A DNA stretch of 63,673 nt, counting the filler, from Aduncisulcus paluster (lineage: Eukaryota), in assembly GCA_024181965.1 (NCBI GenBank). It is 8 parts of 8 records of this genome, joined end to end, with 100 filler letters (N's around TTAATTAATTAA, not from the genome) between each part and the next. Parts side by side here need not be neighbours in the genome. Positions count along the whole stretch, not along the records: positions 44,830 to 49,299 come from BQXS01000040.1; 7 more parts are not named here. The stretch is one strand, 5' to 3'. This document shows positions 561 to 62,630 of this stretch, one piece after another. The first letter of the stretch is position 1; the number at the start of each line of letters is the position of its first letter. The position numbers and the translations under genes were made by a program. The notes below the pieces were generated by a model. It saw nothing but the letters and a program-made list of their open reading frames with translations, did no database searches and was not told the origin of the DNA.

Positions 561-796
561 TTACCTTGTGATAAGTGAACAAATGATAATTTATTCTCAA
601 TCCTATTTAAAACCTAAAAAATAATCTATTGGAGGTGTGATATCGAAATACAATCTACTCATAACAATTCCAATGATAAAATACTTGATAAAATAATTAC
701 CAGCGAAGATCAGAAAAACACTGGAAGACTTCCAGTGGAAGTCACACACTGAAAACCAGACCTAGGGTGAAATAATTCGGAAATAATCCAAGAAAA

Positions 797-1984: not shown

Positions 1985-4900
1985 ATGGATGAAATTCATG
2001 AAGATATGATTGGAGTTATACCCTCTTTAACGATTTCAAGAGAGTCTCTCCCTCTAGATCCTTCTCTCGCCTCTGATGAATTAATATTGGACAAGGATAT
2101 TGAAGAAAATTCGTTAAATATATTGCTTAAAGAAGAAAAGTACGATGATATTCCCGATAAAACGGAGATAATATCCTATTTCCAAATCTTCTACGAAAAA
2201 CATAGTGAATTCATTGATCTTCTTAATAATCCCTCATATTCTTGCGAAAAACCCTTAAAAAAGATCTTAAAACATGATTTGATAGTGAATACTGATTCAT
2301 ATGAGAATTACCTCATATCATCTTTTTTCCCAAAAAATATTGGTAAATTGACTCCTATTGGCAAAAAAATTATTGAATTACGAAGTGTACCTACATCTTC
2401 TGTTCTTATTTTAAAGCAATATATTCATGTTTATCTCAGATCTGTTGAATTATGTAATCATGCTCTATCAAAACATTCTAAGCTTTCTGTCNNNNNNNNN
2501 NNNNNNNNNNNAAAAACCCTTAAAAAAGATCTTAAAACATGATTTGATAGTGAATACTGATTCATATGAGAATTACCTCATATCATCTTTTTTCCCAAAA
2601 AATATTGGTAAATTGACTCCTATTGGCAAAAAAATTATTGAATTACGAAGTGTACCTACATCTTCTGTTCTTATTTTAAAGCAATATATTCATGTTTATC
2701 TCAGATCTGTTGAATTATGTAATCATGCTCTATCAAAACATTCTAAGCTTTCTGTCTTGGAATTATACCACATAAAAACCATATTATCGACTTTGGATTG
2801 TTTATTTGCCTCTTGTATACTCCCTTGCATTGTTGATGGTGAATGTGAAGATCCCGCTCTTGTTCAATTCCGCCAAACTTTATTTTCATCTTTTATTTCA
2901 TCAATTCTTTCAAATCAATTAAATTCTCTACTAATTCGTATAATTTCTATGACCATTGATACCGAAGGAAGCCGTCCACTCTCATTTGATGTTGAATTCA
3001 GTGCAATTGTAGTTTCCCTCGACCAAATAATTCAAAATCTAATTTTAGCTTCAAAACTGATTGACGTATCATCCTTTTCTATCATAATGAACTCTATTTT
3101 TAATCTTGATGAATTTATTTTGAAATATTATGAACCCCAATCTGACATCTCTATATTAATTTCCTGTCTTATCAATAGGGCTATTAAGCTAATAATCATT
3201 CCAAAACATCCATTATCGGTCCCCAAAACAGCTTTAAAACATCTGTTTATATCTCCTCAAATGTTTCTCAGTGTTGTGAATTCTATGCGCGTTCCCAACA
3301 AAATGAGCATCAAAAATGTTGATACATCCGCGATAATCACTCTTCCAATCTCTCTTGAGATGTATCTTGACTTTGTTACCTCTCTATTGCCGGAAGGGGA
3401 AGTTCTCAGTGACGAATATCTTCATTGTATGTTTCATGAGTGTAAGCAGGCATTTGAAGTCCTCAAAGGTCAAAATATTTCAAAATCACGAGGAATAAGC
3501 ATCATTTCCAGTGTTTTCTCTTCCTCTTCCTCTTCCTCTTCTTCCCTCTCCTTCTTTCCAATGTGTTGTCATATTTTTTCCGGTATTCATGGACATATTG
3601 ACTCTTCCATCAGCAAGCAACAAGACACGTATGCTCTCCTCAAATCTAATGGATTGTATGTGTTTTCACGCACCATTGAAACTGAAATGAAGAAATGGAA
3701 TGAGAAATGTTCAGTTATTGTCAAACGAACACATTTGACCCGGGCGCTGCTATTATTTGAAGTACTGTATAATGCAGCAGAGAGTATGTGGAGAGAAAAT
3801 GAATCTATTGTTGGAGAAAAAGAATTGTGCTCTCCTTACTCTGTCATTTTGTATGACATGCAACATGTCGTTGAATCATGTGCCTTGTGTATCACCGCCA
3901 GTATTACGATGGAGACCGAAGAAGAGGAGAGAATGATGAAAATTCCAATTAAGTTTGTCTCCTTTCTGATAGAATTGCTCTCATCTCCAAGAGATCTTCC
4001 GATTCAGTTGATTTTATCCACTTTATTTACAACTTTACGGACCATTTTCCACCATTCTAAATCATTATCATCTCTTGTGGCTTGTTTTGCTCGTGGATTA
4101 GCTGATAATGAATCAACCATTTTGGAAGAGGTTGTTAAGGTTGATGAAGATACCGATACAATGCTATTTATGGATTATTCTATTCTATTATTAGATATTT
4201 CCTCAGTGTGTGGATGGAAGAGTGAGGTTGGATTTGAGAATCAATATGACACGTGTCATGTTTCTTCCACTACAATCGATCTTCTCTTGCATTTTATTGC
4301 CCAAGTTCTCCAATCCATTCCTTCTATATATGTTGACTATATGATTACTACCTGTTCCCATTCCATGTGTTATCTCGTCTATCATTCCTCATTGCAGAAA
4401 CGTGGCTTCGTGTCAACGATCTGTGAGTTTGTTTCTGGGGACATTCTCCTCGATTCGCATGATATCCTTGACCGGTTGCTTGAGCTACTGTTCAAACGTA
4501 ATGATTGGATTTCTGAGGACTCGTTATACTCCATTGCCTATCTATTAATGGTGTCAAAGCCTCAGGAAGTATGGATGAAACAATTGAATGGCTTTGTTGA
4601 AAATTTACAAGGAGATGCTATCAGACTGATTGAACTAGGTCTGTTCGAACAGCTATTTAGTATCATCGATACTCGTGTCCTGGATGTACCCGATTACTCT
4701 TCTCTTGATAATCGCCCCCTTGTGGATATATTTGTGTCTTCAAGCATTGAACCTGTTGTTTTGTCTGAAACTTTGCAGCAATACGTACCGGATACATTCC
4801 CACCTCTCTTGTGCACCACTCTGAGTCGGTTAATTCAGAATATTTTGGAGTCTAATAATATCAATGAGAATTCCATGAAGTATGTTTGTTCTTTTATTGA

Positions 4901-7900
4901 AGTATTTGCAAAGATACTCCATGTTTGTGGTGCAGATTATATTCATTATTGTTCGGGATTGCTTGTAAGTGCCATCACAAAAATAATGAAATGGATCTCG
5001 AGTACTGTTGAAGCTAAACCAGGAGGAGAAGAAGAAGGAAGAGATGGAGAGGAAGAACTTTGTTCTGATGAAGAATCAATTCGGTTTCTTGAGGAATATG
5101 GGTATAAATTATTAGGTCAATCTGTGAATGTATGTTGTATGTTAATGATCAAATCATCACCAATATCCTTGATTTCCATTCAAAAGGTTATTCAACCCCA
5201 TGTGAATATTCATATACTTCGTTCTTATCTCTTGTGTCATTTCAATGCATATTTTAGACTCAAATCTGACGCTTTCCATGGTGAATCATCTTTTCCTCAG
5301 TCGTATCATGATATTTCATTCGCTCAGATAGTATCTCGACTTCTTCTCAAAGTTCCAAAAATAGTATTTCGTGATTCATCATATGACTATGTTGTAAAAG
5401 ATATTTTCTACCTTTCATTTTTGGGTTTGTTTGCATTTGAATATTCTGATGCTATTGTTGATGATTTGAGATCTTTGGCAACTGATTTAGGGACCAATAT
5501 TGCTAATTATGGAGATCTTAATATTCTCAACCTATTTTTAGATTTTATTGATAAATATTGTAACGTCAGTGAAATGATACGTTATGATTTGGATGATATT
5601 TCGACCTTTGTCAGTGAATTGGTCATTAAAACTGAAGATTTAACTAGAATTACAGCCTCTTCATGTTCTAAACTTCCTGAAACATTTCCTATCTTCATTG
5701 GTTCTGCATTTTCTGATCCAATAATATATGGATGTATTGCTATCTTGAATATGGATTATATTTGTGAATCTTTCTCAGCATTTTGTGCTATTTCTGAACG
5801 ATTAACCAAATATATCGCTCTCCACCAGTGCATAATGATGGTGGAATCGTCAGCATCAAAAATGGAATCTAAAAATAGATCTCATAGTATTTCTGAGGAC
5901 CATTTCAGCCCAGACTTATTCTTTATTGACCATAATGTTCATCTTGAACTTGCTCAGATCAGTAATTTTGTGTGGAATCAATACCTTAAGAAACATGATC
6001 ACCCCTTCGATTCTTCTTTATCTTCTTCTTTATCAATGGGATCTCTCTCTTTCCTCTCTTCTTTATTATTAAAAGATAAGTATTTCCAGCTTTCTTGCGT
6101 TCTTTCTCCTTCTTATCTTGCGGGTCTATTGCAGAAACATGCTGAAGTATGGTCAAAATGCTCAGAATTCGGTTACGTTGATGTTTCCTTCTTTTCTCTA
6201 TTGCTATCTCTCCTTTCTAAAAATAGAATACCAACGGTATCGGTTTTGAATTCAGTTCTTCTTCCTATATTCAAAGAAATCGTTCTATATTTAAGTTCAC
6301 TTGAGAAACATTCTAAATATGATGAAAAGAGTATATTCGAACATCTTGGCATACCATTGATGACTATAAATAGATTTGAGAAAGAATTCTCAGACGGCAC
6401 TTCAGATGACCAAGACGAAGTCGACGGGGAAAAGCAAGAGCTACAACTTCGGTGTGTTGGGCAAAAAAGAGGTTTTATTTCTAAACGTCTTGAGAGAGAA
6501 CAAGGAACAAAAGATAATGAAGAAGAGGAAGATGAAGAAGAAGATGAAAAGGGGACAGATGAACGTTTGGACATTCCTTCCTCTCTTCCTCAGTCTTTCC
6601 CTCCATCTCTCTTTCCTATCGTTTGTCATGTTATAAACATGTACCTTTTCTTAACAAATGAGGACGATTCTGTGGAGGTTATAGAAGAGTTTATGGGTAT
6701 TCTCACACCGGATATAGCTCCTTTCCTTATTACTCACACGCTTCAATGGCTTCTTCCTTCTTCTCTTCTTTCAAAGAACAGGGTTGAATCTCTCGAAATT
6801 CTTGCTTCAACTCCAGCATCATCTCGACTGAACAAGGAAGACGACGTCTCTGACATCGATTCGTCATTCTGTTCCGAATCCTCGTCCGAATATGAATATG
6901 TCGATGAGGAGGAAGAGGAAGAGGAAGAGGAGAAAGAAGAGGTCTCAGAGCTGGGGAAAGAAGCAGAAGAAAAAGAAGAAGAAGGAGAGATAGCGGAGAG
7001 TAGGGAAAAGGAGAGTGAAATACGAGATATTTTAAAATTAATATCTCGTATTTCTGCGAAAGATATCATTATAACCAATGAGTCTTGTGATGTTTTGAAA
7101 CAATTCCAATCACTTTTCTCATCATTATCTTCAATAGATCCTCTTATCCTTGTTAAGAATATAGTCTTTTGTCTTTGCTCTTTTTGTTCTAAAGCTTTTA
7201 TCCCGTTCATTTCAAGATTGTTGCTCCAATTGATTGAATTTGAGTCATTCTTGACTATTCAAAGGAAAACAGGAAAGATATCACACGGGGAAATGAGTGA
7301 ATTGGTCTCCAATAATATTATTGGAGAAAGAGATGAAGGGGAAGAGAAGGAGTCTGAATATCCTCTTATGAATGAAATCTTCCTTGATTTATCCTGTCAC
7401 GTTTCTTCACTTTCTTCATGTTCTTCAATGCTTCTCTCTTGTGTTGTGTTCTTTGTTGAATCTTGCCTTGTGTCCAATGGTATTATAAATGTATTTCACA
7501 GATCGCTACCAATAATCATTGCAAATCTCGAAATCTACATTGCTTCTGCTTCCAACTATACGGCACTTGGGATATCAGAATTGCCTGAAAAGGAGCATTC
7601 TTTATCAAAATGTGGTGAGAAAGTTGGAATGATCTATAAATATCTTCCCATTGAGAATGAACATCAAGCTCTTGATGAATTTAAGAGACTTTGTCGATAT
7701 ATATCATCTTGCTGTGATTATATTATTAAACACACCCCAACAACGATTTTATCAAGTCACTCTACATCCATCATTATGCTCAAGAAAAGCGCGAGTTCAT
7801 CTTCAAAATCCCCCTTGGAAAGAAAGAAGATTGCCGGTTCAAAAGCTCGGGTATCTAAGAATTCGATGGTTGAACGGGTGCTTCGGCCTTCAAAAACTCT

Positions 7901-10032
7901 TCCTTTCCTCTACAAAGTGCTTCATTTGAGCCAGTATTCGCTTGACAACACTCCATTCCAGGGAGTGCTCAACGATCTGTGTTCTTTGGGCGAGATTATG
8001 TGCAGTGAAGTGTGTCAATTGGTCCTGCGTCTATTGCACAGCTTTGTCGATAAGCTCCCTCTGTTTAAACATGAAGGTACAGATAAAAAAGATATGAGAT
8101 ATGTTGGGAAAGAGTTGACTCTTGACCATAACAGCGAATTGTTTATTAATAATATTACTAGATTATTATCTGTCTTCTTGAACGATTCGTCTCATGTTGG
8201 GAAAGTTATTCGGATTTTTCGGGGAGATTTATTGAATGTAATTATTAAAATACCGATCACTTCGATTTCTTTCCTGTTTTCCTTTGGATTCTTATCGAAT
8301 ATTATCACCATTGCTCGGCAGATTGGAGGTAAGAATTGCCAAACATTGCTTTCACATGTTGTTGGAATCATCTCCGAACACTCCAATCTTGTTATAGAAT
8401 CTGGATCAATCGGTGAAAGTCAGTCCAAATCCAAGGATTCTGATGATTGTCACTCTCATTCGAAATCCGTGTTGTCCCCACAATCTTTCNNNNNNNNNNN
8501 NNNNNNNNNGAGGTAAGAATTGCCAAACATTGCTTTCACATGTTGTTGGAATCATCTCCGAACACTCCAATCTTGTTATAGAATCTGGATCAATCGGTGA
8601 AAGTCAGTCCAAATCCAAGGATTCTGATGATTGTCACTCTCATTCGAAATCCGTGTTGTCCCCACAATCTTTCTCAGCTCAATTCTTCTCGCTTTTGTTC
8701 CTCTTATTCGAGACAGTAAGTGAAATGTTCTCCCATCCGTCTATCGGTACAACTGATGGGGTAGTTGTCTGGCATTTGTCCAAATCTGTTCAAATGTATA
8801 ACGATATCAACCTGTACGTGGCTTTTTTGAATGCTCTTTCCTGTGCTAGACCTTATCAACCTGAATCATTCGATTCTTTATCCTCGACTTCAATCAAAAG
8901 CAGGTCAAAGAAATCAGTGTCGGCTTCTACAGTATCTGAGTCGGATAAACGGGATATTTCACAGTCTTTTACGACTTTCCTGCTTGTAATTGAGCTTATT
9001 CATGGGATTGAATCGACCAAGAAGAAAGAGGCTGAGGCGAAACAGAGAGAGGCTGCCCTCGCCGCTGCACAGGCTCAAGCAGAAGTAGTTTCTGATACCA
9101 TTCCAGGTCAGACTCAAGCCGTCACTTCTTCGGCAGTACAGAGCAGTCAATCAATAACGACTGGAGGAACTGCCCCTGTATTAGCTACTTCTGTGACTCC
9201 ACCGGTTGACAAAGAAGCTTTGAAATCTATTGTTGACTCCCACACTGGAATCATTGAAGCTATAGGTCGTATGATCGGATTGATGGAACAGTATTGTCAT
9301 GGCCTTGATGCTATTGAGAAAGGTGAGATTAAGCGTTTATTCCAGGAGAGGATATCCACTCAATATCTCCACATTATTCCAAAGAATGTCAACGCTGAAC
9401 CCAAAGAAGGTGAGATTTCACTATATCCGACTTACTTAGCACACACGACTGCTGTATTCCGATGCGTTAGTGCCGTTATGAAGTGTGGTTGTAACTGCCA
9501 AGATATGTGTCTTTTAGTGGTAAATGTCATGACGTTTGGAATGTACCCTAATCTATTGCCACCAGCTTCATTCCCAAATATCAGTGCTATATCCATGTTC
9601 GTCAATGCATTGTGTGAGTCGGCAAGAGTTGTTCTGGAATATTGTGAAGCTGGAACTTGGGAACAACTCTGGCAATCGTTAAAATATCAAAAATCAATAG
9701 GAATGAATCCAGGGGATATATACATTGATTTTGGAAAGATGTTTATTATTCCATTACATAGTTTCACAAATGACCTTCTTAAAAAAAGGTTGATTGATCA
9801 TTGTTATTACTCTTTTTTGTCATTGTGTGTTCATATTGTTGAAAAAATGAAGAAAACCCCTTCGCTTGCTCGTGCAAAGTACTCGAAATCCCTCATCAAG
9901 GAGCTGAAAAGAGTGGTGAAAGACGATGAAAGTTACATTGTGAAAAATGAAAACATTCGAGCTGTAATTAAGGAAAATTTTGATCAACTATCTGCAATGG
10001 TCTTTAACGACACTGATTGTTGTATCGTATGA
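1985..10032 (+). CDS. Giant (~2530 aa) helical/HEAT-like hypothetical protein ending in CCIV
   Basis: Three ORF-track segments are separated by 20-N gaps with duplicated flanks (265 and 184 nt offsets). Removing the duplications gives one 7599-nt frame. No family recognised. Confidence 0.8.
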
Positions 10033-10775: not shown

Positions 10776-11011
10776 AGGAAAATTTCGAAGAATTTAAAAA
10801 CAAAAAATCAAATTCAGTCGATATATTCAACGAAAAAACACAAAACAAAGCTCTTATAGCCTAGCAAATTATTACCCGATTCAAATCATCATATATATTA
10901 TTTTAGATGAATTTAATACCCCATTATTATAAAATATTAACAATATATACTTTCCTACATGAGTTATCTTCAAAAGTCGGTTTTGGTGGGATTTAAGAAA
11001 TATTTTTTGTA

Positions 11012-11974
11012 TTGATGCGTTTTATTAAAGACATATCCCATGCTTTAACTTTTTCTTTCATTTTTTTAATGTATTTTTGTGTCGTATTATGTTCTACACC
11101 GAGGCCATCAGTATTAATGCATGGAATTCATGACACCAGTGCTGATATGGTTAAAATGCAATCTTGGATCAAGGAGGCTTCTCCTGATACCTATGTCCTC
11201 AATGTTGAATTGGGTGATGGTGTCTTTGATTCCATATTTGGAGACATTACGAAATGGGCTCTTGATTTCATTGAAATAGTTGGAACCGATGAAGTTATCT
11301 CTGAATTTGGCAGTTTCAATCTGATTTGTCATTCTCAAGGGAATATGTTCTGTTTGTATTATCTTGGCATGTACAACAGCAGTTTTGCCAAAGAACAACT
11401 CCCAGATTACGATCTCGATTCATTCCCAACCGTGTACAATTACATGTCACTTGCTGCTCCTGCGGCTGGATACTTTGGCGATAACTCCATGTTTCAATTT
11501 ATGGGTTTAGAGACAAATGATGTTGCCAGGCTTGCTGGGTCCTTATTTTATACTCCCAGCATTCTTCAATTACTCGTTAACCCTTCCGGATATTGGCGTG
11601 ATCCCATGCATCTTGACGTTTATAGACAACTTTCTCTTTTCTTGCCCATCCTCAACAATGAGATATCACATCCAGACTTTGCCCTTAACAAACAGAACAG
11701 AATGTCTTTGAATTATTACAAGATGTTTGGATCTCCAAATGATGGAGTTATTTCCCCCTATCAAAGTACTTGGTATGGATATTTTAAGGAGGGTACACTC
11801 GAAGAATTTGTAACCGCAGAGGAGACAGATACTTGGGAGAATGTTGGATTAAAAGATTTGGATGAAGCCGGGAAGTTAGAGTTTGTAGATTCTGGGTTTT
11901 ACCACACTGACTATCTAAATGATTGTGGAAAAGCTTTCTTTGAGGGGCAGATCTTACCGTATTTGTTAAATTAA
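11012..11974 (+). CDS. Palmitoyl-protein thioesterase, copy B
   Basis: 320-aa paralog of 797..1759 with the same catalytic motifs. Confidence 0.88.
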   Translation: MMRFIKDISHALTFSFIFLMYFCVVLCSTPRPSVLMHGIHDTSADMVKMQSWIKEASPDTYVLNVELGDGVFDSIFGDITKWALDFIEIVGTDEVISEFGSFNLICHSQGNMFCLYYLGMYNSSFAKEQLPDYDLDSFPTVYNYMSLAAPAAGYFGDNSMFQFMGLETNDVARLAGSLFYTPSILQLLVNPSGYWRDPMHLDVYRQLSLFLPILNNEISHPDFALNKQNRMSLNYYKMFGSPNDGVISPYQSTWYGYFKEGTLEEFVTAEETDTWENVGLKDLDEAGKLEFVDSGFYHTDYLNDCGKAFFEGQILPYLLN

Positions 11975-11986
11975 TTGTTTGTAATT

Positions 11987-12140
11987 TAGTATAGTACAGT
12001 ATAGTACCGTGTTTATTGCGGGCTCATCGTTTTTTGCTTACTAAGCATTCTATCCGATAGAATTGAGTGAGTCACTCTGAGTGACTCAATCTTCGTCTTG
12101 TTGATCTTCTATGTTTTTTTGTTCATTAGCTTCCATTTTA
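11987..12140 (-). mobile_element. Putative short 3'-end retroposon remnant with (TACTR)4 tail
   Basis: Minus-strand AATAAACAC followed by four TACTR pentamers, the same signature as at 60097..60141. Present in only one arm of the inverted repeat. Confidence 0.4.
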
Positions 12141-12248
12141 ATTGTTACGAGTAGATTGTATTTCGATATCACACCTCCAATAGATTATTTTTTAGGTTTT
12201 AAATGGGATTGAGAATAAATTATCATTTGTTCACTTATCACAAGGTAA

Positions 12249-12765
12249 ATGTTATCAACGAGTGCTAAATTCATCCATTCTATCGGTTTTAGACTATTTT
12301 CGTATGTATATCTTTTTCAACTCTATACATATAGCCTTAATTTTGTAGTTTGTTTCTTCCTGTCCAATATTAACATCAATGGTTCGTTCTAACAAAAAAT
12401 ATCTTTTATTTTTATTCATATGTAGTACATTTAATGTGATCGCTTCTGATGGTTCTTCCCATTCTGTTTCTGGTCGTGACAATGAATCTGTCATGTCCGC
12501 CATCAAACGTGCGGGCATTCCCATTGTGAGTGCTTGTGAAGGTAACATGGCGTGTGGAACATGTCATATTGTTCTTGATAAGGGTCATTTCGATGCCCTT
12601 GCACCAGCCTCTGAAGATGAACAGGATACTCTTGATTTTGTTCCCAAACCCACTGATACTTCTCGTCTCGCGTGTGCCCTTCATGTATCTCCAATGCTTG
12701 ATGGAGCCACCATTTCAATTCCTGGGATGGGGAGGAATTTGGTTTCAGAAGAAGACATGATGTGA
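12249..12765 (+). CDS. fdx: [2Fe-2S] ferredoxin with MRO presequence; exons 12249..12301 and 12426..12765
   Basis: Same protein as 44..560; 124-nt GTATGT...TAG intron at 12302..12425. Confidence 0.92.
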
Positions 12766-12841
12766 TATATAAATGATGTCTGCTGCTGTTGCTGGTATGG
12801 AATAAGCTAAGACGGATAGAAATGGATGTATAAATTGCAGA

Positions 12842-12941
12842 NNNNNNNNNNNNNNNNNNNNNNNNNNNNNNNNNNNNNNNNNNNNTTAATTAATTAANNN
12901 NNNNNNNNNNNNNNNNNNNNNNNNNNNNNNNNNNNNNNNNN
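12842..12941. other. Artificial contig linker (N44-TTAATTAATTAA-N44); same at 18998..19097, 35536..35635, 41990..42089, 44730..44829, 49300..49399, 60644..60743
   Basis: Identical 100-nt spacers with an all-frame stop cassette. Genes are truncated at these edges. Confidence 0.98.
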
Positions 12942-13910: not shown

Positions 13911-14242
13911 TTATATCCGAAATTTCTCATTTTCCCTATATCTTGATGACATAACAAGATTGATAATTATTCATTAAAGTTTAATGGTTAAAAAATAAAT
14001 ATTATCTCTTGAAAAGCCAAAATTAAAATGGATGCCAATTTGGCATTGCACTTGTGGATACACAAGAATTCAAGTGTAAATGATCTGATAATTGTGCAAG
14101 AAAGATAACTTATCCCTAGATTTATAGCAGAAATGCCATCATGACACACGTGATGTGTCAAAATAAAATGTTCATCATGAACAGGCATGATGCCGTTGGA
14201 AACTAGTGGTTAAGTCCAAAATTCATTTTATTGGAAAAGAGA

Positions 14243-14697
14243 TTATTTAATGGCAACTAATTCAACGTCGAAGATCAAAGTAGCATTAGGGGGGATGATT
14301 CCACCAGCACCACGAGCTCCATAACCGAAGTCAGGATCAATGGTCAAAGTAGCCTTTTCTCCAACACACATGGTGAGCAAACCTTCATCCCAACCTCTGA
14401 TAACTTGGCCCTTACCAACTTGGAATTCAAGAGGCTTGCCACGCTTGCGGGAAGAGTCGAACATCTTTCCATTAGTAAGCTTTCCTATAGAGCATAAAAC
14501 CGACAAAATAATTCAGGAAATAAATAAAATGACGAATATAAATATAAATATATAAAATTAATAGTTCATAATTGTTATTAAAACCAAAAAAGGAAAACTT
14601 GCGCCAACATACCCTCGTAGTGAACAGCGATAGTATCACCGCGCTTAGGTTTTTTTGTTCTATCACCGACAGTGGTTGTAACTTTTTTGTAACCCAT
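14243..14697 (-). CDS. FKBP1: FKBP-type peptidyl-prolyl isomerase (FKBP12); exons 14697..14613 and 14484..14243
   Basis: Spliced 108 aa: MGYKKVTT...[16 protein letters not shown]...VIRGWDEG...[13 protein letters not shown]. 128-nt GTATGT...TAG intron. Confidence 0.95.
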
Positions 14698-15258
14698 GTG
14701 ACAAAAATAAATAATTAAAGCGGGCAATGTAGGGTTTTGCTTTTCTTCTCAATTTATAAGAAAATGATTGTATTTTCGTACAGAGCCATTTTCAATTAAT
14801 TTTATTTGTGCAAAAAATAGTTTATTTATTGGGGTTTCGAGTACAGATCATCAATTTCAATTTTGAAAAAAATAATGAGCCAGAATCATTTTGTAAATTG
14901 AACAATGTGGAATTATTAAATCTTAAATGATATTATTTCATCCGATTCTCTTTCAAAAAAGGGAAATTATGACTTTGGCTCTCTCTTCACGGTTGATAAT
15001 ATGAATGGCAATATTTTGAAGAGAATCCTCATTTCAGATTGTATTTAATTTGTCATTGAATTAATTCTTGATGAATCCATTCTAGATGTTGAAATAGCAT
15101 TATGCTATGCATAACATCCATCTGAGAGAGATATGGGTATGTATCGCATTGTTATTATGATGAAATTAATCATATAAGTAAGTTTTCATCTTGGTATGGT
15201 GATTATATTATTGCCTTTAAGCCGAAGGTAGAAATGTCGTGATATTGACATCACACAA

Positions 15259-18997: not shown

Positions 18998-19097
18998 NNN
19001 NNNNNNNNNNNNNNNNNNNNNNNNNNNNNNNNNNNNNNNNNTTAATTAATTAANNNNNNNNNNNNNNNNNNNNNNNNNNNNNNNNNNNNNNNNNNNN

Positions 19098-26144: not shown

Positions 26145-26417
26145 TTTATGGATGTATACTCCCTTTTGACAGAAAATCAGAGTGCAAGACCCGGAAAGAA
26201 GTATGGAGGAATGATCAAGAAGTAAACAAATGTAAACTTCATGTTTTCATTTTGAAATAGAATTTTTTAAATTATTTTATTTATGATTTTACGTGATTTC
26301 GATTATACCATCAACATGACTCGGAGAAATTCTATCTCTTGTAGGAAGAGGACAAAACTCAATTCAATGTGAAATATTTTTAAAACACATTATAATATAA
26401 TAATTATATTACTTTAT

Positions 26418-33100: not shown

Positions 33101-34249
33101 TGTCGGCTTCTTTGTTCAATCATGTTATCATGATCTTGATAAACTTGTTCAAATTATCCGCGATCCAAATCCAGATGCTCTTTCTGGCCAGGGATTATCC
33201 CAGCTTGTGTTTGACAAATCACCAAGAGACTTTACTCATGCTTCAATATCTGGATCAATCCACCTTGACAGAGTTTCTTATCTACCCGGTGGATGTATCC
33301 TGTCTATTTGAGGATGAGCCNNNNNNNNNNNNNNNNNNNNGATGGATCTCTTCAAACGTGTCAGCTCTCTCATTCATCCACCATTGATTCTGCTTTTGCA
33401 CTGGAAACGAGACTATCCTGTTCTGAATGTACACGAGAAAATAGCAGGAATCCTCCTGATTCAATAACGCCAAGCACAACTTCTCAGGATTGGAAGTTTG
33501 TAGGAACAGCCTCTGTTGGTCAAAATGTCGGCTTCTTTGTTCAATCATGTTATCATGATCTTGATAAACTTGTTCAAATTATCCGCGATCCAAATCCAGA
33601 TGCTCTTTCTGGCCAGGGATTATCCCAGCTTGTGTTTGACAAATCACCAAGAGACTTTACTCATGCTTCAATATCTGGATCAATCCACCTTGACAGAGTT
33701 TCTTATCTACCCGGTGGATGTATCCTTCAAANNNNNNNNNNNNNNNNNNNNGATGGATCTCTTCAAACGTGTCAGCTCTCTCATTCATCCACCATTGATT
33801 CTGCTTTTGCACTGGAAACGAGACTATCCTGTTCTGAATGTACACGAGAAAATAGCAGGAATCCTCCTGATTCAATAACGCCAAGCACAACTTCTCAGGA
33901 TTGGAAGTTTGTAGGAACAGCCTCTGTTGGTCAAAATGTCGGCTTCTTTGTTCAATCATGTTATCATGATCTTGATAAACTTGTTCAAATTATCCGCGAT
34001 CCAAATCCAGATGCTCTTTCTGGCCAGGGATTATCCCAGCTTGTGTTTGACAAATCACCAAGAGACTTTACTCATGCTTCAATATCTGGATCAATCCACC
34101 TTGACAGAGTTTCTTATCTACCCGGTGGATGTATCCTTCAAAGTGGTCTATTTGAGGATGAGCCACAAAGATCAAGAGCTTATCCATTGTTCATCCAAAT
34201 TTCACCCGGAACAGAAGATATTGTCTGCATCAGAATCCAAGATTATTGA
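30131..34249 (+). CDS. Large hypothetical protein; C-terminal region repeated about four times across gaps
   Basis: 1000-aa ORF. The segment ~32650..33040 recurs at 33042, 33341 and 33752 with 20-N gaps. The true end is probably ...IVCIRIQDY at 34249. Confidence 0.7.
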
Positions 34250-34652
34250 AAGAAAACTTCAAAACCTGTTTACTTGATCAAGTTGATCGATTCAATCATC
34301 ATCATAACAAATTACAATGCAATAATGCTTAAACAATTTTGATTGAATGTAAAATTTCAAATTCGACATCTACGATCATTTTTTTCATTGAAAAATTTTC
34401 AATGATATTTGTAAACGGAATTAACCTCTCAGCCTGACTCAGGTACCTTACGAGGAGTTCATACTGTGCAAAAACAGTAATATCGCTTATAGAATAATAA
34501 ACACGATGATTAATTTTTTTAAGTTAAAAATTTCAACATAAAAGATAATCTGCGATAACCTCAAAGAAAAATTCTTATATAAATGGATCAAATCCACTTT
34601 CAAACCACCGAACATAAAATAAATAAATTATATTTGATAAGAGTTTCATACT

Positions 34653-35535: not shown

Positions 35536-35886
35536 NNNNNNNNNNNNNNNNNNNNNNNNNNNNNNNNNNNNNNNNNNNNTTAATTAATTAANNNNNNNNN
35601 NNNNNNNNNNNNNNNNNNNNNNNNNNNNNNNNNNNTCCCTATAAATGGACCTCTCTCATCTATAAATATATCTATTGAGAAACTTGAGAATAATTACCAT
35701 GATGAACTGAGTTTTGATTGTGAGTTCTTTTGTGCTAAAGATCCCACTGATTCTTCTTCTTCTTCTTCTTCTTCTTCTTCTTCTCATTCTGTTGAATATA
35801 ATATTAGAAAACATTCGCCTGAACTGATTTCTATCAAGGCCCAACTGTGGAAATTCCTCTCTTCTTCTTCAAATATTCCCTGTTCA

Positions 35887-41062: not shown

Positions 41063-42089
41063 TGTAGCGTGACAAAAGGGATGGGGAATATTAATAGCTA
41101 ATCTACAAATTATTTTTTTAAAAAAAGATCACACAGAAAACATGGAAAACCCGACAAACAATAAAGAAACAGAAGAAATTGATGAATCGACGAATCGACC
41201 AAAACAACCAAAATAACCAAAATAAATAAGGTTGATGGGGACGAAAATGGGGAAAGAAATGGTGGAAAATATATGGTAAGATAATGTTCAAAGATATGAT
41301 AATACAAGAAACGTCGCGGCGACCCATATTGCCAATGACTCGGCCGTTTTGATGTTCTCAAGGGTGAATACGACAGAGGATCGGTCAAATGGCCGGGATA
41401 TAATTGACATACAATAAAATAAACGGTCTTTGTGTGTCCAGGAAAGAACGAAAGGAGACAAAATCGAAAAACAAAAATGGTCGATCCATTTCATTTCATT
41501 TTGGACCCATTCCCGACCTCCCATGTCCGAATGTTTTATGCTACTAACCATAACTATGTAAAATGATTGCCTTGATTGTGTTTTCCAAGAAGAGATTTCT
41601 CGATATTAGTATATAACCTTCCAGAACTTCCGATAGTCGCTACAACTTCCATTACTCCCGAGGTTGTCAACATGATGTCCATATATCCATTTATTATGAT
41701 TTGTATAAACGTGATTAGTTGCCGATTTTATCATTCTCTTAAAGACTTTGTCTCTGTAGAAAATGGAATCCGATTCGAAATTCGAATCTTCAAAACATGG
41801 TTGTTTGGGGATCTAAATGCCACATTATCTGGGTTAGTAATGATGGTCAAATCGATTTCAAGAAGTGGATTGCCGACGAGACATGGATAAGTATCTCTAC
41901 TGTTGATGCAAGTATCACCGAGTTTTTACCCCTTGAAACCGTCGTATACATTCATTATTCATCCATTTTTATGTATTTGAAATGAAATANNNNNNNNNNN
42001 NNNNNNNNNNNNNNNNNNNNNNNNNNNNNNNNNTTAATTAATTAANNNNNNNNNNNNNNNNNNNNNNNNNNNNNNNNNNNNNNNNNNNN

Positions 42090-44524: not shown

Positions 44525-44829
44525 AGTTTAAACTAATGGGATAATCTTGTTGGAGCGGAGAGAGAGATCATACAATCAAAAAATGAATGATGAATAATGG
44601 TCTTCTTTAAAATAGAGATTGCTCAATAACGTTGAGTAAGTTTATTCTTGAATACAATGCATCATTAAACCCGGGTTTAACGGCAACTCAAATTGTATCT
44701 CTCCCAAAAGAAGCAAGAGTTTCCAAGAGNNNNNNNNNNNNNNNNNNNNNNNNNNNNNNNNNNNNNNNNNNNNTTAATTAATTAANNNNNNNNNNNNNNN
44801 NNNNNNNNNNNNNNNNNNNNNNNNNNNNN

Positions 44830-46949
44830 TTCTGAGCACATTGACGGATGCTGTCGGTGCTCTGAAGATGGATCTTGAGTCTGACACTTCACGCTGGAAT
44901 GGAACGTCTGAATCGTACTGTGTTGGTCTGTGCTCGTTGCGTTCCTTGGAGATCAGTGGGAGTGATGATTCCATTGGTTCCGATCTGTCATCATTCACTT
45001 CTTTGCTGAACAACATTGCCATGTGCAGTGGTCAGTGTGTCAACAGTTATGATGATGGAACGAAAGTGTATCCATTGTCATCCACTCTGACACATCTTGA
45101 TCTCTCCTCCAATGCTATCTCTGACCCTACCATCGTTTCACTCCAACCTGGTCTCTCTGGTGCGACACATCTGACTCTGAGTGACAACTCCATCTCTGAC
45201 CTTGCTCTGTTGCAACAAGTCGTTGATGATTCCAATTCCACAATCGCATATGTTGATGTGAGTGACAATAGACTTGATTGTGGGTCGACTGTGTCTGAGT
45301 GTTTGAATGCACTCGCTGATATCTGTGAGCGGGATATATCTGGATCAGGTGATGGAAATGATGGCGTTGAAGTTGTGTTTGGGGATGTGGATGGTTCTGA
45401 CCCATCCGGACTTGTTTCCCAGGATACGACGTCTGCATGTGGATCTGACTCTTCTTCTTCTTCTTCTTCATCATCATCATCATCGTGCTCATATCTGGAA
45501 GATCATCGTGTGTGTGGAGTTGACTACTCTGTGGATGATGTGGATGTCACAGAGTTGATATGCATCTGTGGGTCAGGATACTATGAAGACATATCCTCTG
45601 GTGAATGTGTTTCTTCTTCTTCTTCTTCTTCTTCTGAATGTTCCAACTGTGGTGGTGAGCGTGGTACATGTGTGTATGATGCTGACTCTGACTCTGACTC
45701 TAGTGATGAATCCTCCCCACTATTCTGTGAGTGTTCAGATGGATGGTATGGAAACGATTGTTCATCCCTTTGTCCTGTTTCTGATGATCTTGGTTTGTGC
45801 AGTGGATCTTCTCGTGGAACATGTGATGCTGCCACCCATACATGTGTGTGTGAGTCTGGGTATTATGGCTCAGCATGCCAACTGAGTTGTTCCGATGACG
45901 ATTCTTGTGAGGGGAATGGAACATGTTCTGTTGGATCCTTCCTTGATCCGTCTTCTTCTGATCCTTCTTCTGTGTCTTCTGAAGCTATTGTATGTGAATG
46001 TTCCTCAGGATGGTATGGATCGTCATGTTTCTCAACAATACCCACCGATGTATTTGTGTCTTCTGACGGAGAGGCTGAGGACTATCCTTGTGGTAGGGAT
46101 TATTCTTATTCCGATAGTTCTGATCCCACAACCGCAAGCTATTCTGCATATGCGAATGAATCATCATCCACATGTGAATGTGCTCCACATGGTCTTGCTC
46201 TGAGTTCGTCTTCTGGGACATGCATTGATCCTGCAACACACCCTGACTATCGTGATATTCCTGGAAATGATACAGCATGCTCTGAATGTGGCACCTCTGC
46301 TTCGAGCCATGGTGTTTGTGAGTTGAATGAGGAGACCATGGTTGCTTCGTGTTCATGCGAACATGGTTGGAAAGATTCGTATTGTGATGCGAATATTTGC
46401 CCAATTTCTTCGGATGGAGTTTTGTGTGGTGGACATGGTGAGTGTGACACGGCAACAGGTGAATGTGAATGTGTTGTGGACACAAGTGATGAAGATGACA
46501 CGAATCCACAATACATTTGGTATGGAGATGCTTGTACCCATGAATGTCCATCTCACCCTTCAAGTGACGTTCTTTGTTCCAGTCTTGGTGTGTGCAACCC
46601 TCTCACTCACTCGTGTCTGTGTGCATGGGGATTCAGTGGAGATGCATGTCAGTGGAACATGTGTGCCATTGGATATGGTGAGTATGGACATGACTCCGAA
46701 TGTTTCGACCATGGTTCGTGTGTTGCTGGTGATTCCTCCAAGAATGAGCCTCCATTCTACTGTTCATGTAAGGTAGGTTGGGGTGGAATGTTCTGTGAAC
46801 GTGACATTTGTTTGTGTGACCCTGAGTCTTCCTATGGATGTGCCACGATCAGTGATGGGTCCAGAGCTTGTAAATGCAAGGAAGGATGGTACGGAAGAGC
46901 TTGTGAGAGGAGATATTCGGGTTCACAGAGGCCATATAGTTTCTTTTAA
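44830..46949 (+). CDS. LRR plus EGF-like (tenascin-like) cysteine-rich surface protein, 5' partial
   Basis: LRRs LTHLDLSSNAISD and HLTLSDNSISD, followed by many CxCxxGWYGxxC repeats. Confidence 0.85.
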
Positions 46950-47135
46950 TTTATTATTTATTTTATTTGTTGAAAAGTTTTGTTATTATCATTTGTTCGT
47001 GTAAATTTGTTGTTTCTTTTTTATGTTTTTTCTAGAACTCTATTTCTTACGTGATAGATCATTATGTTTCTTATCGTATGGATAATTTTCTTCAATTATT
47101 TTTTTGCTATTTTTAAAATCTTGTTTCATTTGATA

Positions 47136-47759
47136 TTTTTTGGAATATTGTTTTTATTGCTCCCAAGACTTGGAATTTCGTATATTATTGATATTTTGTT
47201 CAAACACAGTTTGTTGTGATTTTTTAATTAACTAATTATTTCTTATTTTGACTTATTCTTGATTATCTGAATCTCGAGACTAATTCTTTTCCATGTTTAA
47301 ATTAAAATGTAATGTTATTTTCCGGAATTTACGTATTTTTATTCCCGTTTGGAAAAGGTCCTATTAATATTTATATTTTTATTCTTAAATCATTTCAATA
47401 TTCAAATTTTTTAGATCTTGTGATTTGAATTTTTGTAAAATTGGATTTTTTTTGGAATATTGTTTTTATTGCTCCCAAGACTTGGAATTTCGTATATTAT
47501 TGATATTTTGTTCAAACACAGTTTGTTGTGATTTTTTAATTAACTAATTATTTCTTATTTTGACTTATTCTTGATTATCTGAATCTCGAGACTAATTCTT
47601 TTCCATGTTTAAATTAAAATGTAATGTTATTTTCCGGAATTTACGTATTTTTATTCCCGTTTGGAAAAGGTCCTATTAATATTTATATTTTTATTCTTAA
47701 ATCATTTCAATATTCAAATTTTTTAGATCTTGTGATTTGAATTTTTGTAAAATTGGATT
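47136..47759. repeat. Exact 312-nt tandem duplication of AT-rich DNA
   Basis: 47136..47447 is repeated at 47448..47759, with the junction in a T run. Confidence 0.9.
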
Positions 47760-47808
47760 TTTTTTATTTACTTTCCTCAGATTATTGGATTATTTCCATG
47801 GTCATCAT

Positions 47809-48208
47809 AATTGATTCAATTTATTAAATTGAATTCAACGTTTTCAAAACAGGTTATTTTCCACCTATGTGGATTCCACATTCTTTCTGTTCTCACTCTC
47901 ACTGAGAACACTCAGTAAACTTTCTGATATGTTGACAAGTCAATAATTGACTGGCGACACCAATTACACTTGTTATTAACAAGATAGCTTTTCATATCAT
48001 TGCCAGTGGCAATTTGCCAGAATCTAAGATTCAGAATATTGTTATTTGGTCCCGGGAGAATTAAAACCTGAGCAGCTCATTGCTAATTTGGGCTCATCAG
48101 AATCTGGAATAGAGAGTAGCAAAGAGGAAAAATGTTGTACCTTGAAGGATGTAGTGAAGCAGAAACAAAATTTGATCCCAAGTGGAAAAATATCGATAGA
48201 GATCTATC
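47809..48208. repeat. Chain of overlapping short perfect palindromes
   Basis: More than a dozen inverted repeats, mostly with a 1-nt centre (listed in findings). Confidence 0.9.
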
Positions 48209-48848
48209 TTATCATCGCCGAGTTCGCTGTAGGATTGTAAAAATGCCAATTCGATACCGGCAACTGAAAATTTACTTGTCATGTGAGATGGAGTACGAAA
48301 AACAACCATAATCACGACCATTTAAATAAATTTCAAACAGTAATAACATATATGACGTGAAAGGAACAAAAATATTTCAAACATTTCTATTTTTAGAATT
48401 TCTATTTTTAGAATTCCATTATTCAAAATGCTTTAAAAATGATAAAACTCGGTAGAAAAAACGGTAAATTGAAGGACTTATGAAAAATAAAATGTTAAGA
48501 TGTTTTTCTTTTAGAGATTTCTCCAACATAATCTGTCATTTTCTTCCCCTTTCTTCATTTTTAAAGCTGTTTATATTTCATTTTTATCTTTGGAATGCTT
48601 CTTGAATATCTTCTTACCATCACAATCAAGAAAAGCGAAGAGAAGAGAAGGTGAACCGAAATCCTTCGCACATCGAATTAAACTCCGATATCGAATATAA
48701 TGAGAAATATAGAAAAACATTTAATGATGAAGAAAGGATATCAAACAAATGGAAATTACAGAAAATGAATTCTCCGATGTCAGTTCTGACTGACACTGAG
48801 ATTCATATGACTCACAGAATCATTCAACAACGTTCAACTCTTTATGGG

Positions 48849-49274
48849 TTATAATTTACGAACGAGAGAATATATTTGTTGAAGTTTAGTGCTTGCCTTC
48901 ACCACAATATCGTCACAAAGCACACACAATCTCCTTCGACATCTTGTTATCGCCACATTAACCCTGTTATCATTTGATGCCATTCCCACATTTCCTGTAC
49001 CGACATACACGACCCCATCAACACTCTTCCCTTGAACAGAGTCCACTGTGTGCACAGATAGAGGAAAATGATCACGCAAAGAAGAGTCAAGAACATCGTC
49101 AGAGTCGTCAGATAGTTGTTGGATAATATTACGGAGGAAAATAACATGCCTTCGAAGAGGAACAACAATAATAACACTCGCACAGGATTCAAGCATCCTT
49201 ATTCCAAATTGAAGTGCCAACACAAGCATGGAATGTTGATGGAACACACTAGAACATGGATGTTTTGATTTCAT
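48849..49274 (-). pseudogene. C-terminal fragment of a UPF1/DNA2-like SF1 helicase (AAA_12 domain)
   Basis: Motif V-like VHTVDSVQG and motif VI-like NRVNVAITRCR. The N-terminal helicase domain is absent and the ORF abuts a 27-nt repeat at the contig end. Confidence 0.7.
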
Positions 49275-49399
49275 TTACTTTCCTCAGATTATTGGATTAN
49301 NNNNNNNNNNNNNNNNNNNNNNNNNNNNNNNNNNNNNNNNNNNTTAATTAATTAANNNNNNNNNNNNNNNNNNNNNNNNNNNNNNNNNNNNNNNNNNNN

Positions 49400-60643: not shown

Positions 60644-60743
60644 NNNNNNNNNNNNNNNNNNNNNNNNNNNNNNNNNNNNNNNNNNNNTTAATTAATTAAN
60701 NNNNNNNNNNNNNNNNNNNNNNNNNNNNNNNNNNNNNNNNNNN

Positions 60744-61351: not shown

Positions 61352-61921
61352 TTTCGTAATTTTATGAGAATTTTTTGATAATTGGATATGCTCATGAATA
61401 CACGCAAAAAAGATATATAAAATAAGGAATCCTAAAAATTAAAGAATATTTACAATTATAATATTATCATATGATTAGAAAATCCGATGAGATGGAACAA
61501 AACATGAAAAAAAAGTGTAATCTCAAATACATACCACCAGTAATTGAAAGAATAATTACTTGCATTCGAATAATTCCCTAAAGAAGATATATCCAAATAA
61601 ATGTTCTTCAAAATACCCAAGTTCCAGACGAAATTTTTCAAAAACAGAAATATCTACATACTTACATCAATTTCGTATAAGATATTAACGTCAAGTTAAA
61701 ATAATGTTGAAACTCATTCAGTAAATACAGATAATTTAATATGGCACCAAGTAGTTTTGAAAACTAAGTTTTCCCGTGGAATCGATAAGATTAGTGGGGG
61801 GATAAATAATAAAATTAAATTGAAATTGGAGTCTCATCCAAGGAATAATGAGAATCATCGGTGATAACTGGTCCCACAGCACCTCAAGGGAAACTTCAAT
61901 GTTTGTGTAAAATTAACCAAA

Positions 61922-62630
61922 ATGTCAACTCAGAAGGCCTTAGTATGTCTATTCTTTTTGGAATTAAATTCTTCTTCTTCATCAATTTGTTGAAATACCC
62001 CACTCTGATCTTATATTTATTCTTTTCTGTCAAAATCTGCTATTTGTGTTCCTTCGGTAGAAATGTGTTGCTGTTGGAGATGGTGCTGTTGGAAAAACTT
62101 GCATGCTTTTTGTCTATTGTTCTAATGTTTTCCCAGATGTGTACATTCCTACAGTTTTCGATACCCATAAAACTACTGTACTTTATCATGAAGAATCCAT
62201 CAATCTTAGTCTATGGGATACTGCTGGACAGGATACCTACCAGAGATTTAGGCCAATTACATATACTGACACTGATGTCTTCCTTGTTTGTTTCAGTGTT
62301 GTCAGACCTGAGTCTTTCAAGAACATTACTGAAAAATGGATTCCTGAGGTGAGACACACTCGTCCTGATGCTGCTATTGTTCTTGTTGGAACAAAATCAG
62401 ATCTTAGAGAAGACCCTACCACTTTGGAAGAATTGAAAGAGAAAGGCGAGGTTCCTATCTCTGAAGAAATGGCTAAAAAGCTTGCTAAATCCGTTAAAGC
62501 AGCTGGTTATATTGAATGCTCTGCTAAAGAGAGTAAGAATATTCGTGAAGTGTTTGATTTTGCTGTTGATGCAGCTCTCAATCCTAAACATAAGAAGTCT
62601 TCTGGTAGTGGAGGTTGCTTGATTCTGTAA
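61922..62630 (+). CDS. Rho-family (Rac-like) GTPase; exons 61922..61942 and 62061..62630
   Basis: Spliced MSTQKALKCVAVGDGAVGKTC, YIPTVFD, LWDTAGQ, TKSD, ECSAK and CaaL tail CLIL. Confidence 0.93.

Follow-up and report, generated by a model that had tools for sequence, protein, structure and literature searches.

The palindrome cluster at 47809-48208

The DNA studied here is a window of 63,673 nt from the draft genome of Aduncisulcus paluster, in which linkers of 100 nt (a six-frame stop of 12 nt between two runs of 44 N) connect eight contigs. On one of its pieces (44830-49299), downstream of a cysteine-rich gene and a tandem repeat, a first-pass annotation had described a dense chain of palindromes at 47809-48208 and proposed that it was written by iterative fold-back DNA synthesis. 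Palindromes are denoted below as arm-spacer-arm, so that an n-1-n palindrome has two perfectly inverted arms of n nucleotides around a single central base. We observed that all 15 of the listed palindromes are indeed present at their given starts, with reverse-complementary arms. The stretch had been called non-coding, which we can support: it contains no open reading frame (ORF) of at least 130 codons, and its ORFs of 64-74 amino acids (aa) have no Pfam match. The cluster comprises the following features, the bases T and A being given at their arm positions:

47809-47821 and 47814-47834: 6-1-6 and 10-1-10, overlapping, centres 47815 and 47824, 9 nt apart
47867..47881: 7-1-7, fits T at -6 and A at -1
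47888..47916: complex element, 8-7-8 containing a 5-1-5 (centre 47902) and overlapped by a 6-4-6
47938..47952: 7-1-7
47969..47983: 7-1-7, fits T at -6 and A at -1
47999..48019: double unit of a 7-1-7 (centre 48006) and a 6-1-6 (centre 48013), the centres 7 nt apart
48020..48032: 6-1-6, abuts the double unit 47999..48019
48050, 48069 and 48195: 4-0-4, 5-1-5 and 6-2-6, of chance-frequency classes and not counted in the feature

Eight n-1-n palindromes with arms of at least 6 nt lie within 47809-48032 (arms 6, 10, 7, 7, 7, 7, 6 and 6). Five with arms of at least 7 nt occur in about 220 nt, where about 0.04 would be expected by scaling from the shuffles described below (2.4 in 13.4 kb). Not every palindrome listed by the first-pass annotation is beyond chance: the n-1-n class with arms of at least 6 nt exceeds it, whereas those starting at 47840, 47888, 47901, 47932, 48050, 48069 and 48195 belong to classes (5-nt arms, or spacers 0, 2, 4 or 7) that are about as frequent in dinucleotide-preserving shuffles. 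Its statement that the arms share no sequence is correct between separate palindromes but not for overlapping neighbours, which share an arm by construction.

At 47809..47834, the 6-nt core of the arm is repeated directly with an 18-nt period. At 47999..48019, an 8-nt direct repeat has a 14-nt period with an inverted copy in between, and T at -6 and A at -1 are present in each of the two palindromes. By eye, the element at 47888..47916 can be read as an 8-1-8, one arm of which contains a tandem duplication of 6 nt; as it stands, it is outside the enriched class. No Rfam family had a match at gathering score anywhere in the window. One sub-threshold match was present in 47600-48400, a snoRNA-like hit at 48194-48259 (19.6 bits for a gathering score of 50, E 0.38), which we took as chance.

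Enrichment of n-1-n palindromes in non-coding DNA

All maximal perfect inverted repeats with spacers of 0-8 nt were compared with block-wise dinucleotide-preserving shuffles, and the window was split by ORFs of at least 130 codons into 49,344 nt of coding DNA and 13,444 nt of non-coding DNA, the latter in 28 segments. In the whole window (60 shuffles) we detected 25 n-1-n palindromes with arms of at least 7 nt as compared with 7.9 ± 2.8 in the shuffles (maximum 13), and at this arm length all the other spacers were at or below expectation. In non-coding DNA (100 shuffles) the numbers were 40 versus 8.1 ± 2.9 for arms of at least 6 nt, 22 versus 2.4 ± 1.6 for at least 7 nt and 9 versus 0.70 for at least 8 nt, none of them reached by any shuffle. 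Coding DNA showed no excess for arms of at least 6 nt (11 versus 18.3 expected). Spacers 0 and 2-8 did not give any significant excess in non-coding DNA over the same 100 shuffles; with arms of at least 6 nt, spacer 0 gave 9 versus 7.4, and the largest value outside spacer 1, that of spacer 3, was 10 versus 5.6, reached by 6 of the 100 shuffles. The first-pass annotation had anticipated an excess over shuffled controls and a peak at 1-nt spacers; in this window the excess is found in non-coding DNA only and the sole peak of the spacer spectrum is at 1 nt.

The signal is present on seven of the eight joined contigs and is therefore a property of the non-coding DNA of this genome; a locus-specific event is not supported. 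The stretch 47809-48032 is a local hotspot of this window-wide signal.

The excess begins at arms of 5-6 nt and extends to 10 nt. By arm length, observed and expected numbers were 18 and 5.4 (6 nt), 13 and 1.7 (7 nt), 3 and 0.47 (8 nt), 3 and 0.16 (9 nt) and 3 and 0.05 (10 nt), with none at 11 nt or more. Past the first mismatch, the next six pairs held 1.56 matches versus 1.71 expected; there is thus no residual complementarity, and the palindromes are discrete units of 13-21 bp. For the same reason we rejected the idea that they are decayed long palindromes. Copies with one internal mismatch were only mildly over-represented, perfect ones being more numerous. Across 37 sites the arms are unrelated in sequence, and the central base is G or C in 19 of the 37, for a background of 0.307 (p = 0.007).

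Paired centres and base preferences

For the offset analysis 37 centres were used, one exact duplicate across a gap and one T7A7 run having been dropped. Of 15 close centre pairs, six are exactly 7 nt apart, and each other distance up to 25 nt occurs once. At an offset of 7 nt, 20 of the 74 flanking positions carry a second odd palindrome with an arm of at least 3 nt (at least 6 nt for 12 of these), as compared with 0-5 of the 74 at every other offset from 2 to 20. About 25 of the 37 palindromes are single, with no second copy. The 6-nt arm core recurs as a direct repeat with a 14-nt period at six loci on four of the eight contigs, the double units at 719, 12065, 26389, 34381, 47999 and 61752. 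Their centre distance stays at 7 nt while the arms of the first palindrome measure 9, 6, 6, 7, 7 and 7 nt, respectively. Weak third centres (arms 2-3) accompany three or four of the six double units, and no locus has three full centres. The five double units outside the cluster, and one further group of palindromes, are:

719..743: double unit, 9-1-9 and 8-1-8, centres 728 and 735; 62-69 nt downstream of the stop of a minus-strand palmitoyl-thioesterase gene
12035..12088: four abutting or overlapping n-1-n (arms 6, 8, 6 and 10), two of which form a double unit (centres 12071 and 12078); located 3' of the paralogous thioesterase gene, where the other copy on the contig differs in sequence
26389..26411: AT-rich double unit of a 6-1-6 (centre 26395) and a 9-1-9 (centre 26402), with a stop codon 16-23 nt away
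34381..34405: double unit of a 7-1-7 (centre 34388) and a 10-1-10 (centre 34395), flanked by convergent genes
61752..61773: double unit of two 7-1-7 (centres 61759 and 61766) in a divergent intergenic region; the ATG of a Rho/Rac-like GTPase gene follows about 165 nt downstream
13972..14183: three 7-1-7 (13972, 14032 and 14169) and one 7-5-7; bounded by the stop of a plus-strand gene (13910) and, on the other side, by the 3' end of an FKBP-like gene on the minus strand

Since two centres 7 nt apart produce an 8-nt direct repeat with a 14-nt period and an inverted copy in between, the constant spacing implies an 8-bp direct repeat that would resemble a target-site duplication, at the length known for hAT transposons. 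The target-site duplication of hAT elements is 8 bp long (PMC10368747), and Hermes integrates across 8 bp with a preference for 5'-nTnnnnAn-3' (PMC10368747, PMC2803484). We compared the arms with 2371 chance palindromes taken from the shuffles. T was found at -6 in 22 of the 37 palindromes (0.405 in chance palindromes, p = 0.015), A at -1 in 21 (0.399, p = 0.028) and both together in 12 (0.165, p = 0.013); arm positions -5 to -2 have the background composition.

Palindromes at paralogous thioesterase genes

The first contig is an inverted duplication at its ends (1-2000 and 10900-12841). It carries two palmitoyl-thioesterase genes, whose proteins share 89% identity; their long identical blocks resemble the outcome of gene conversion. 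The distal flank, about 660 nt, is identical in both copies except for one position and contains a ferredoxin:

44-460, minus: 2Fe-2S ferredoxin ORF, inside the shared flank
12349-12765, plus: 2Fe-2S ferredoxin ORF, inside the shared flank

Between the stop codon and the shared flank, about 100-180 nt cannot be aligned between the two copies. Here one copy has a double unit, and the other has four abutting palindromes and is longer. Palindromes have therefore been gained or replaced after a recent duplication, in agreement with the prediction of a mutational origin. This pair is the only one of its kind in the window, and neither copy contains an element.

Possible origin as excision footprints

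We lean towards the interpretation that the n-1-n palindromes are footprints left by the excision of a cut-and-paste transposon, of the hAT type or using another transposase with an 8-bp stagger that produces hairpins on the flanks. On integration, such an element would duplicate an 8-bp target, ABCDEFGH. On excision, each flank would be sealed as a hairpin, the tip of which is one unpaired base adjoining the element; this hairpin would be nicked 6-10 nt from its tip, whereby the flank would gain its own inverted copy (long P-nucleotides) around a single base, and the ends would be joined via microhomology. If the P-extensions of both flanks annealed across the duplicated target, the product would be ABCDEFG-h'-g'f'e'd'c'b'-a'-BCDEFGH, which has two n-1-n palindromes with centres 7 nt apart, i.e. 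a double unit. T at arm position -6 and A at -1 are also predicted by this mechanism. Each scar would add about 14 nt, so that it would be tolerated solely outside coding sequence and would accumulate there; 47809-48032 would consist largely of such scars. The first-pass annotation had itself mentioned hairpin-opening repair and suggested looking for hAT-type transposases, and in this respect it agrees with the interpretation favoured here.

DNA-PKcs-deficient mice show long P tracts, and the long arms observed here would fit an organism without Ku/DNA-PKcs-dependent opening of hairpins. The locus had earlier been connected to the reduced replication machinery of Carpediemonas. That connection is not supported; the published point that bears on the matter is another: metamonads have been described without Ku70-Ku80 and DNA-PKcs, with alternative end joining in some of them, in the available text of PMC8516963. 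Aduncisulcus does not appear in the main text of that paper, and the corresponding loss in A. paluster is therefore something that we infer.

Several observations weigh against excision footprints. No transposase domain was found in any scanned ORF of the 64-kb window, and a Pfam search at E ≤ 5 on eight unexplained ORFs gave no transposase-like domain. The window does not contain any convincing transposon with terminal inverted repeats and an 8-bp duplication either: a scan for inverted ends with such duplications yielded four weak candidates, as compared with 0-1 per shuffle in 10 shuffles, none of them convincing. Arms longer than 7 nt in double units and the faint third centres exceed what the simplest model predicts. 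About one scar per 400 nt of non-coding DNA, mostly still perfect, demands a very high and recent activity. The target consensus gives modest support (p about 0.01-0.03), small sets with other spacers also have T at the sixth position (9 of 13 palindromes with spacer 0 and 6 of 10 with spacer 3), and of the six 8-mers deduced from the double units only two agree with T and A alike. A Hermes-like extension of the consensus, GTnnnnAC, was dropped, G being found at -7 in only 2 of 19.

The scars could instead be the product of an endogenous process of hairpin-forming breakage and repair, for example by a domesticated hAT-like nuclease or by a replication-linked strand turnaround with a fixed step of 7-8 nt, which would continuously write intergenic DNA at about 14 nt of palindrome per event in a eukaryote without classical end joining. 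We consider this rather unlikely.

Other explanations

That the palindromes are a mutational product at the DNA level and neither binding sites nor RNA structures, as the first-pass annotation held, is supported by the enrichment of spacer 1 alone, by the unrelated arms and by the absence of any Rfam family. Its proposal of snap-back or template-switch synthesis at breaks or stalled forks, independent of any transposon (e.g. by Pol-theta-like alternative end joining) and possibly iterated, would agree with a signal restricted to non-coding DNA, with perfect inverted copies of adjacent sequence and chains of the X-X'-X type, and with the lack of a transposon in the window; the partial third centres of some double units would suit it as well, and alternative end joining has been reported in some metamonads (PMC8516963, available text). 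However, it does not explain why the loop is exactly one base while spacers 0, 2 and 3 are not enriched, nor why T and A should favour fixed arm positions. A fold-back that turned at the end of each new copy would vary the centre distance with arm length, and iteration should sometimes yield three full centres; the second centre stays at 7 nt and such loci are missing, so that iterative synthesis is unsupported, and we regard snap-back in general as an unlikely origin. Selected structures, i.e. RNA hairpins or DNA cruciforms serving the 3'-end formation or termination of transcripts where the genome is compact, possibly in both directions between convergent genes, are suggested by the location of many n-1-n palindromes 16-270 nt past stop codons or between convergent genes, by the predominance of perfect copies over those with one mismatch, which selection would predict, and by the enrichment of short-spacer inverted repeats in yeast 3' flanks (PMC2908449, available text). 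Yet a hairpin wants a loop of at least 3 nt, where spacers 3-5 lack a significant excess, and does not require complementarity right up to the centre. Moreover, several sites are 5' or divergent (15369, 29965/29977 and 61752/61759), the members of overlapping pairs cannot fold simultaneously, single mismatches have no G:T bias, and the paralogous copies carry unrelated palindromes. In a survey of 118,019 genomes, the modal spacer is 0 in eukaryotes and 4 in bacteria, not 1 (PMC13155455, available text). We therefore hold selection for structure to be improbable.

Binding sites for dimeric DNA-binding proteins often have a dyad symmetry with an odd centre, and the weak positional pattern TnnnnA-n-TnnnnA would be compatible with them; but arms that are unrelated across the 37 sites and vary from 6 to 10 nt, at a density and with overlaps above any expectation, make this explanation very improbable. 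An artefact of library preparation or assembly deserves mention, the genome being a short-read-only MaSuRCA draft of 25,863 contigs with an N50 of 4.6 kb and very high coverage (PMC9933649). Against it, a Logan contig of the DNA run X1 (1176 nt, depth 1323) matches 46921-47135 and 47448-48408 with 0 differences, and a contig of run X2 matches 46920-47135 and 47448-47958, also with 0 differences, ending at 47958 where that of X1 continues. The palindromes were thus not invented by the assembler. The check stays within one sample: X1 and X2 come from the same one, none of the listed runs is recorded as RNA and the library kind of X2 (RNA) is only a guess, and X1 is perhaps the source data of the assembly, so that the check is independent of the assembler and not of the sample. 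Fold-back chimeras would in addition give long inverted arms, not arms of 6-10 nt between unique DNA, and coding DNA of the same contigs has no excess. An artefact is accordingly the least credible of the explanations considered, and we give it hardly any weight.

Surroundings of the cluster and other features of the window

The piece that contains the cluster also carries:

44830-46949: cysteine-rich EGF/LRR gene, ending at 46949
47091-47765: AT-rich tandem repeat of 312 bp, about 2.2 copies, 95-97% identity
48257-48703: high-copy stretch adjoining the cluster, on which many diverged contigs (at least 90% alike) stack in both runs
48849-49274, minus: truncated helicase ORF, 141 aa, Pfam AAA_12 (E 7.7e-12)

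The stretch 48257-48703 has a summed depth of 5e4-1.6e5 versus 1323 alongside, and the pile of diverged contigs shows that it is a member of a high-copy repeat family. It could be a remnant of the mobile element responsible for the scars. It has no Pfam match, no clear element ends and no terminal inverted repeat with an 8-bp duplication at its edges; a 12-nt inverted repeat near these edges (48249-48260 and 48685-48696) has no matching 8-bp flanks. The EGF/LRR gene belongs to a very large family, with hundreds of diverged contigs on it, many variant positions and a summed depth of up to about 3e5. No n-1-n palindrome with an arm of at least 6 nt occurs in the 312-bp tandem repeat, one unit of which is collapsed in the contigs of X1 and X2, which makes the actual number of copies uncertain.

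A direct repeat of 31 nt with 97% identity is found at 47762-47792 and at 49269-49299, the contig terminating with the second copy. Read on the plus strand, the repeat has a pyrimidine tract with CAG at its end, resembling a 3' splice site; a short open frame then runs to a stop at 47808-47810, and the palindrome cluster begins at that point. When 46950-49299 was compared with the window by BLAST, the 31-nt repeat and the 312-bp tandem repeat were the only matches. The helicase ORF covers no more of an SF1 helicase than its C-terminal part and is immediately preceded by a stop. It is either a fragment of a gene or a last exon; longer relatives were searched for, and none turned up. Contigs of X1 and X2 do not cover 48704-49299, and such a gap in cover proves nothing.

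The window is made of separate contigs, so that adjoining pieces are not known to be neighbours in the genome. Besides the linkers, at 12842-12941, 18998-19097, 35536-35635, 41990-42089, 44730-44829, 49300-49399 and 60644-60743, eight gaps of 20 N are present. Long ORFs were obtained with the standard genetic code, and a tRNA scan of the window gave 0 genes. Two genes next to palindromes were recognized by eye, the FKBP-like one not being a Pfam match. Both have an intron that starts with GTATGT, and these introns contain no n-1-n palindrome with an arm of at least 6 nt:

14243-14699, minus: FKBP-like gene
61923-62630, plus: Rho/Rac-like GTPase gene; its first exon, read by eye, has seven codons and its intron measures about 118 nt

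Inside an open frame of 2033 codons (2415-8516) are a 15-8-15 inverted repeat (7017-7054) and an 11-0-11 palindrome (7306-7327), both unusually long for coding DNA of the window. The 20-N gaps at 33321-33340 and 33732-33751 are each followed by the same sequence and preceded by a similar one, which suggests that the gene 33269-34249 contains a repeat of about 411 nt or that scaffolding has duplicated the sequence.

Significance

If the palindromes are excision footprints, A. paluster would hold natural records, in their thousands, of the opening and joining of hairpin-capped breaks in a eukaryote without Ku/DNA-PKcs, the density of the window, about one scar per 400 nt of non-coding DNA, being scaled here to the genome and not measured in it. 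These scars would be a large in vivo data set on hairpin opening and alternative end joining. Transposon excision, beyond insertion, could then be a major writer of intergenic sequence. Odd palindromes with a partner at offset 7 and TnnnnA arms would provide a reference-free signature of past hAT activity in any genome. Caution would also be needed before dyad symmetry in protist intergenic DNA is called a terminator or a binding site, unless excision scars have been checked for.

Comparison with known systems

In the literature, supplements excluded, we found no report of a genome-wide excess of odd palindromes or of palindromes in Aduncisulcus; footprints of this form are textbook knowledge at single loci, and it is their genome-wide excess that we have not found described. 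Short-spacer inverted repeats of yeast resemble the palindromes studied here in being intergenic, biased to 3' flanks, more perfect than random and without a coding excess (PMC2908449). Unlike here, the available text of that study describes no sharp peak at spacer 1 beyond randomised genomes and no 7-nt partner rule. Template-switch or quasipalindrome mutations likewise create a perfect inverted copy of adjacent DNA in one event (10.1101/2023.04.19.537475, PMC10766183, available text), but a fixed 1-nt centre, an 8-bp direct repeat and a target consensus are not among the predictions of their models.

RAG nicks exactly at the border and gives even palindromes without a central base, Transib duplications are 5 bp long, and long P tracts appear when DNA-PKcs or Artemis is missing. 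Our palindromes differ from RAG/Transib products in that spacer 0 shows no enrichment and the offset points to 8 bp. A 5-bp duplication would correspond to offset 4, where a partner with an arm of at least 3 nt is present at only 4 of the 74 positions. They are similar to the P-nucleotides of V(D)J coding joints (RAG/Transib) in the principle of a flank hairpin that is opened off-centre, leading to palindromic additions (PMC5499845). The same source describes flank hairpins for hAT, Transib, MULE and RAG alike, which host enzymes then open.

Among hAT elements, footprints of Ds are palindromic P-nucleotide insertions whose centre is the complement of the base adjoining the transposon, with one centre per flank, and their arms reach 20 nt in S. 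cerevisiae and at most 3 nt in Candida (PMC5873905). In contrast to typical plant or Candida footprints, the arms in A. paluster are much longer (6-10 nt). The scars were also found here without an element or a comparison of empty and occupied sites, and they apparently make up a sizeable share of intergenic DNA, for which we found no such report. On the other hand, they would share with hAT footprints (Ac/Ds, Hermes, Ascot-type) the inverted duplication of the flank around one base next to the former element, two centres per event with the 8-bp target duplication kept on both sides, the joining by microhomology and, less clearly, the target preference nTnnnnAn.

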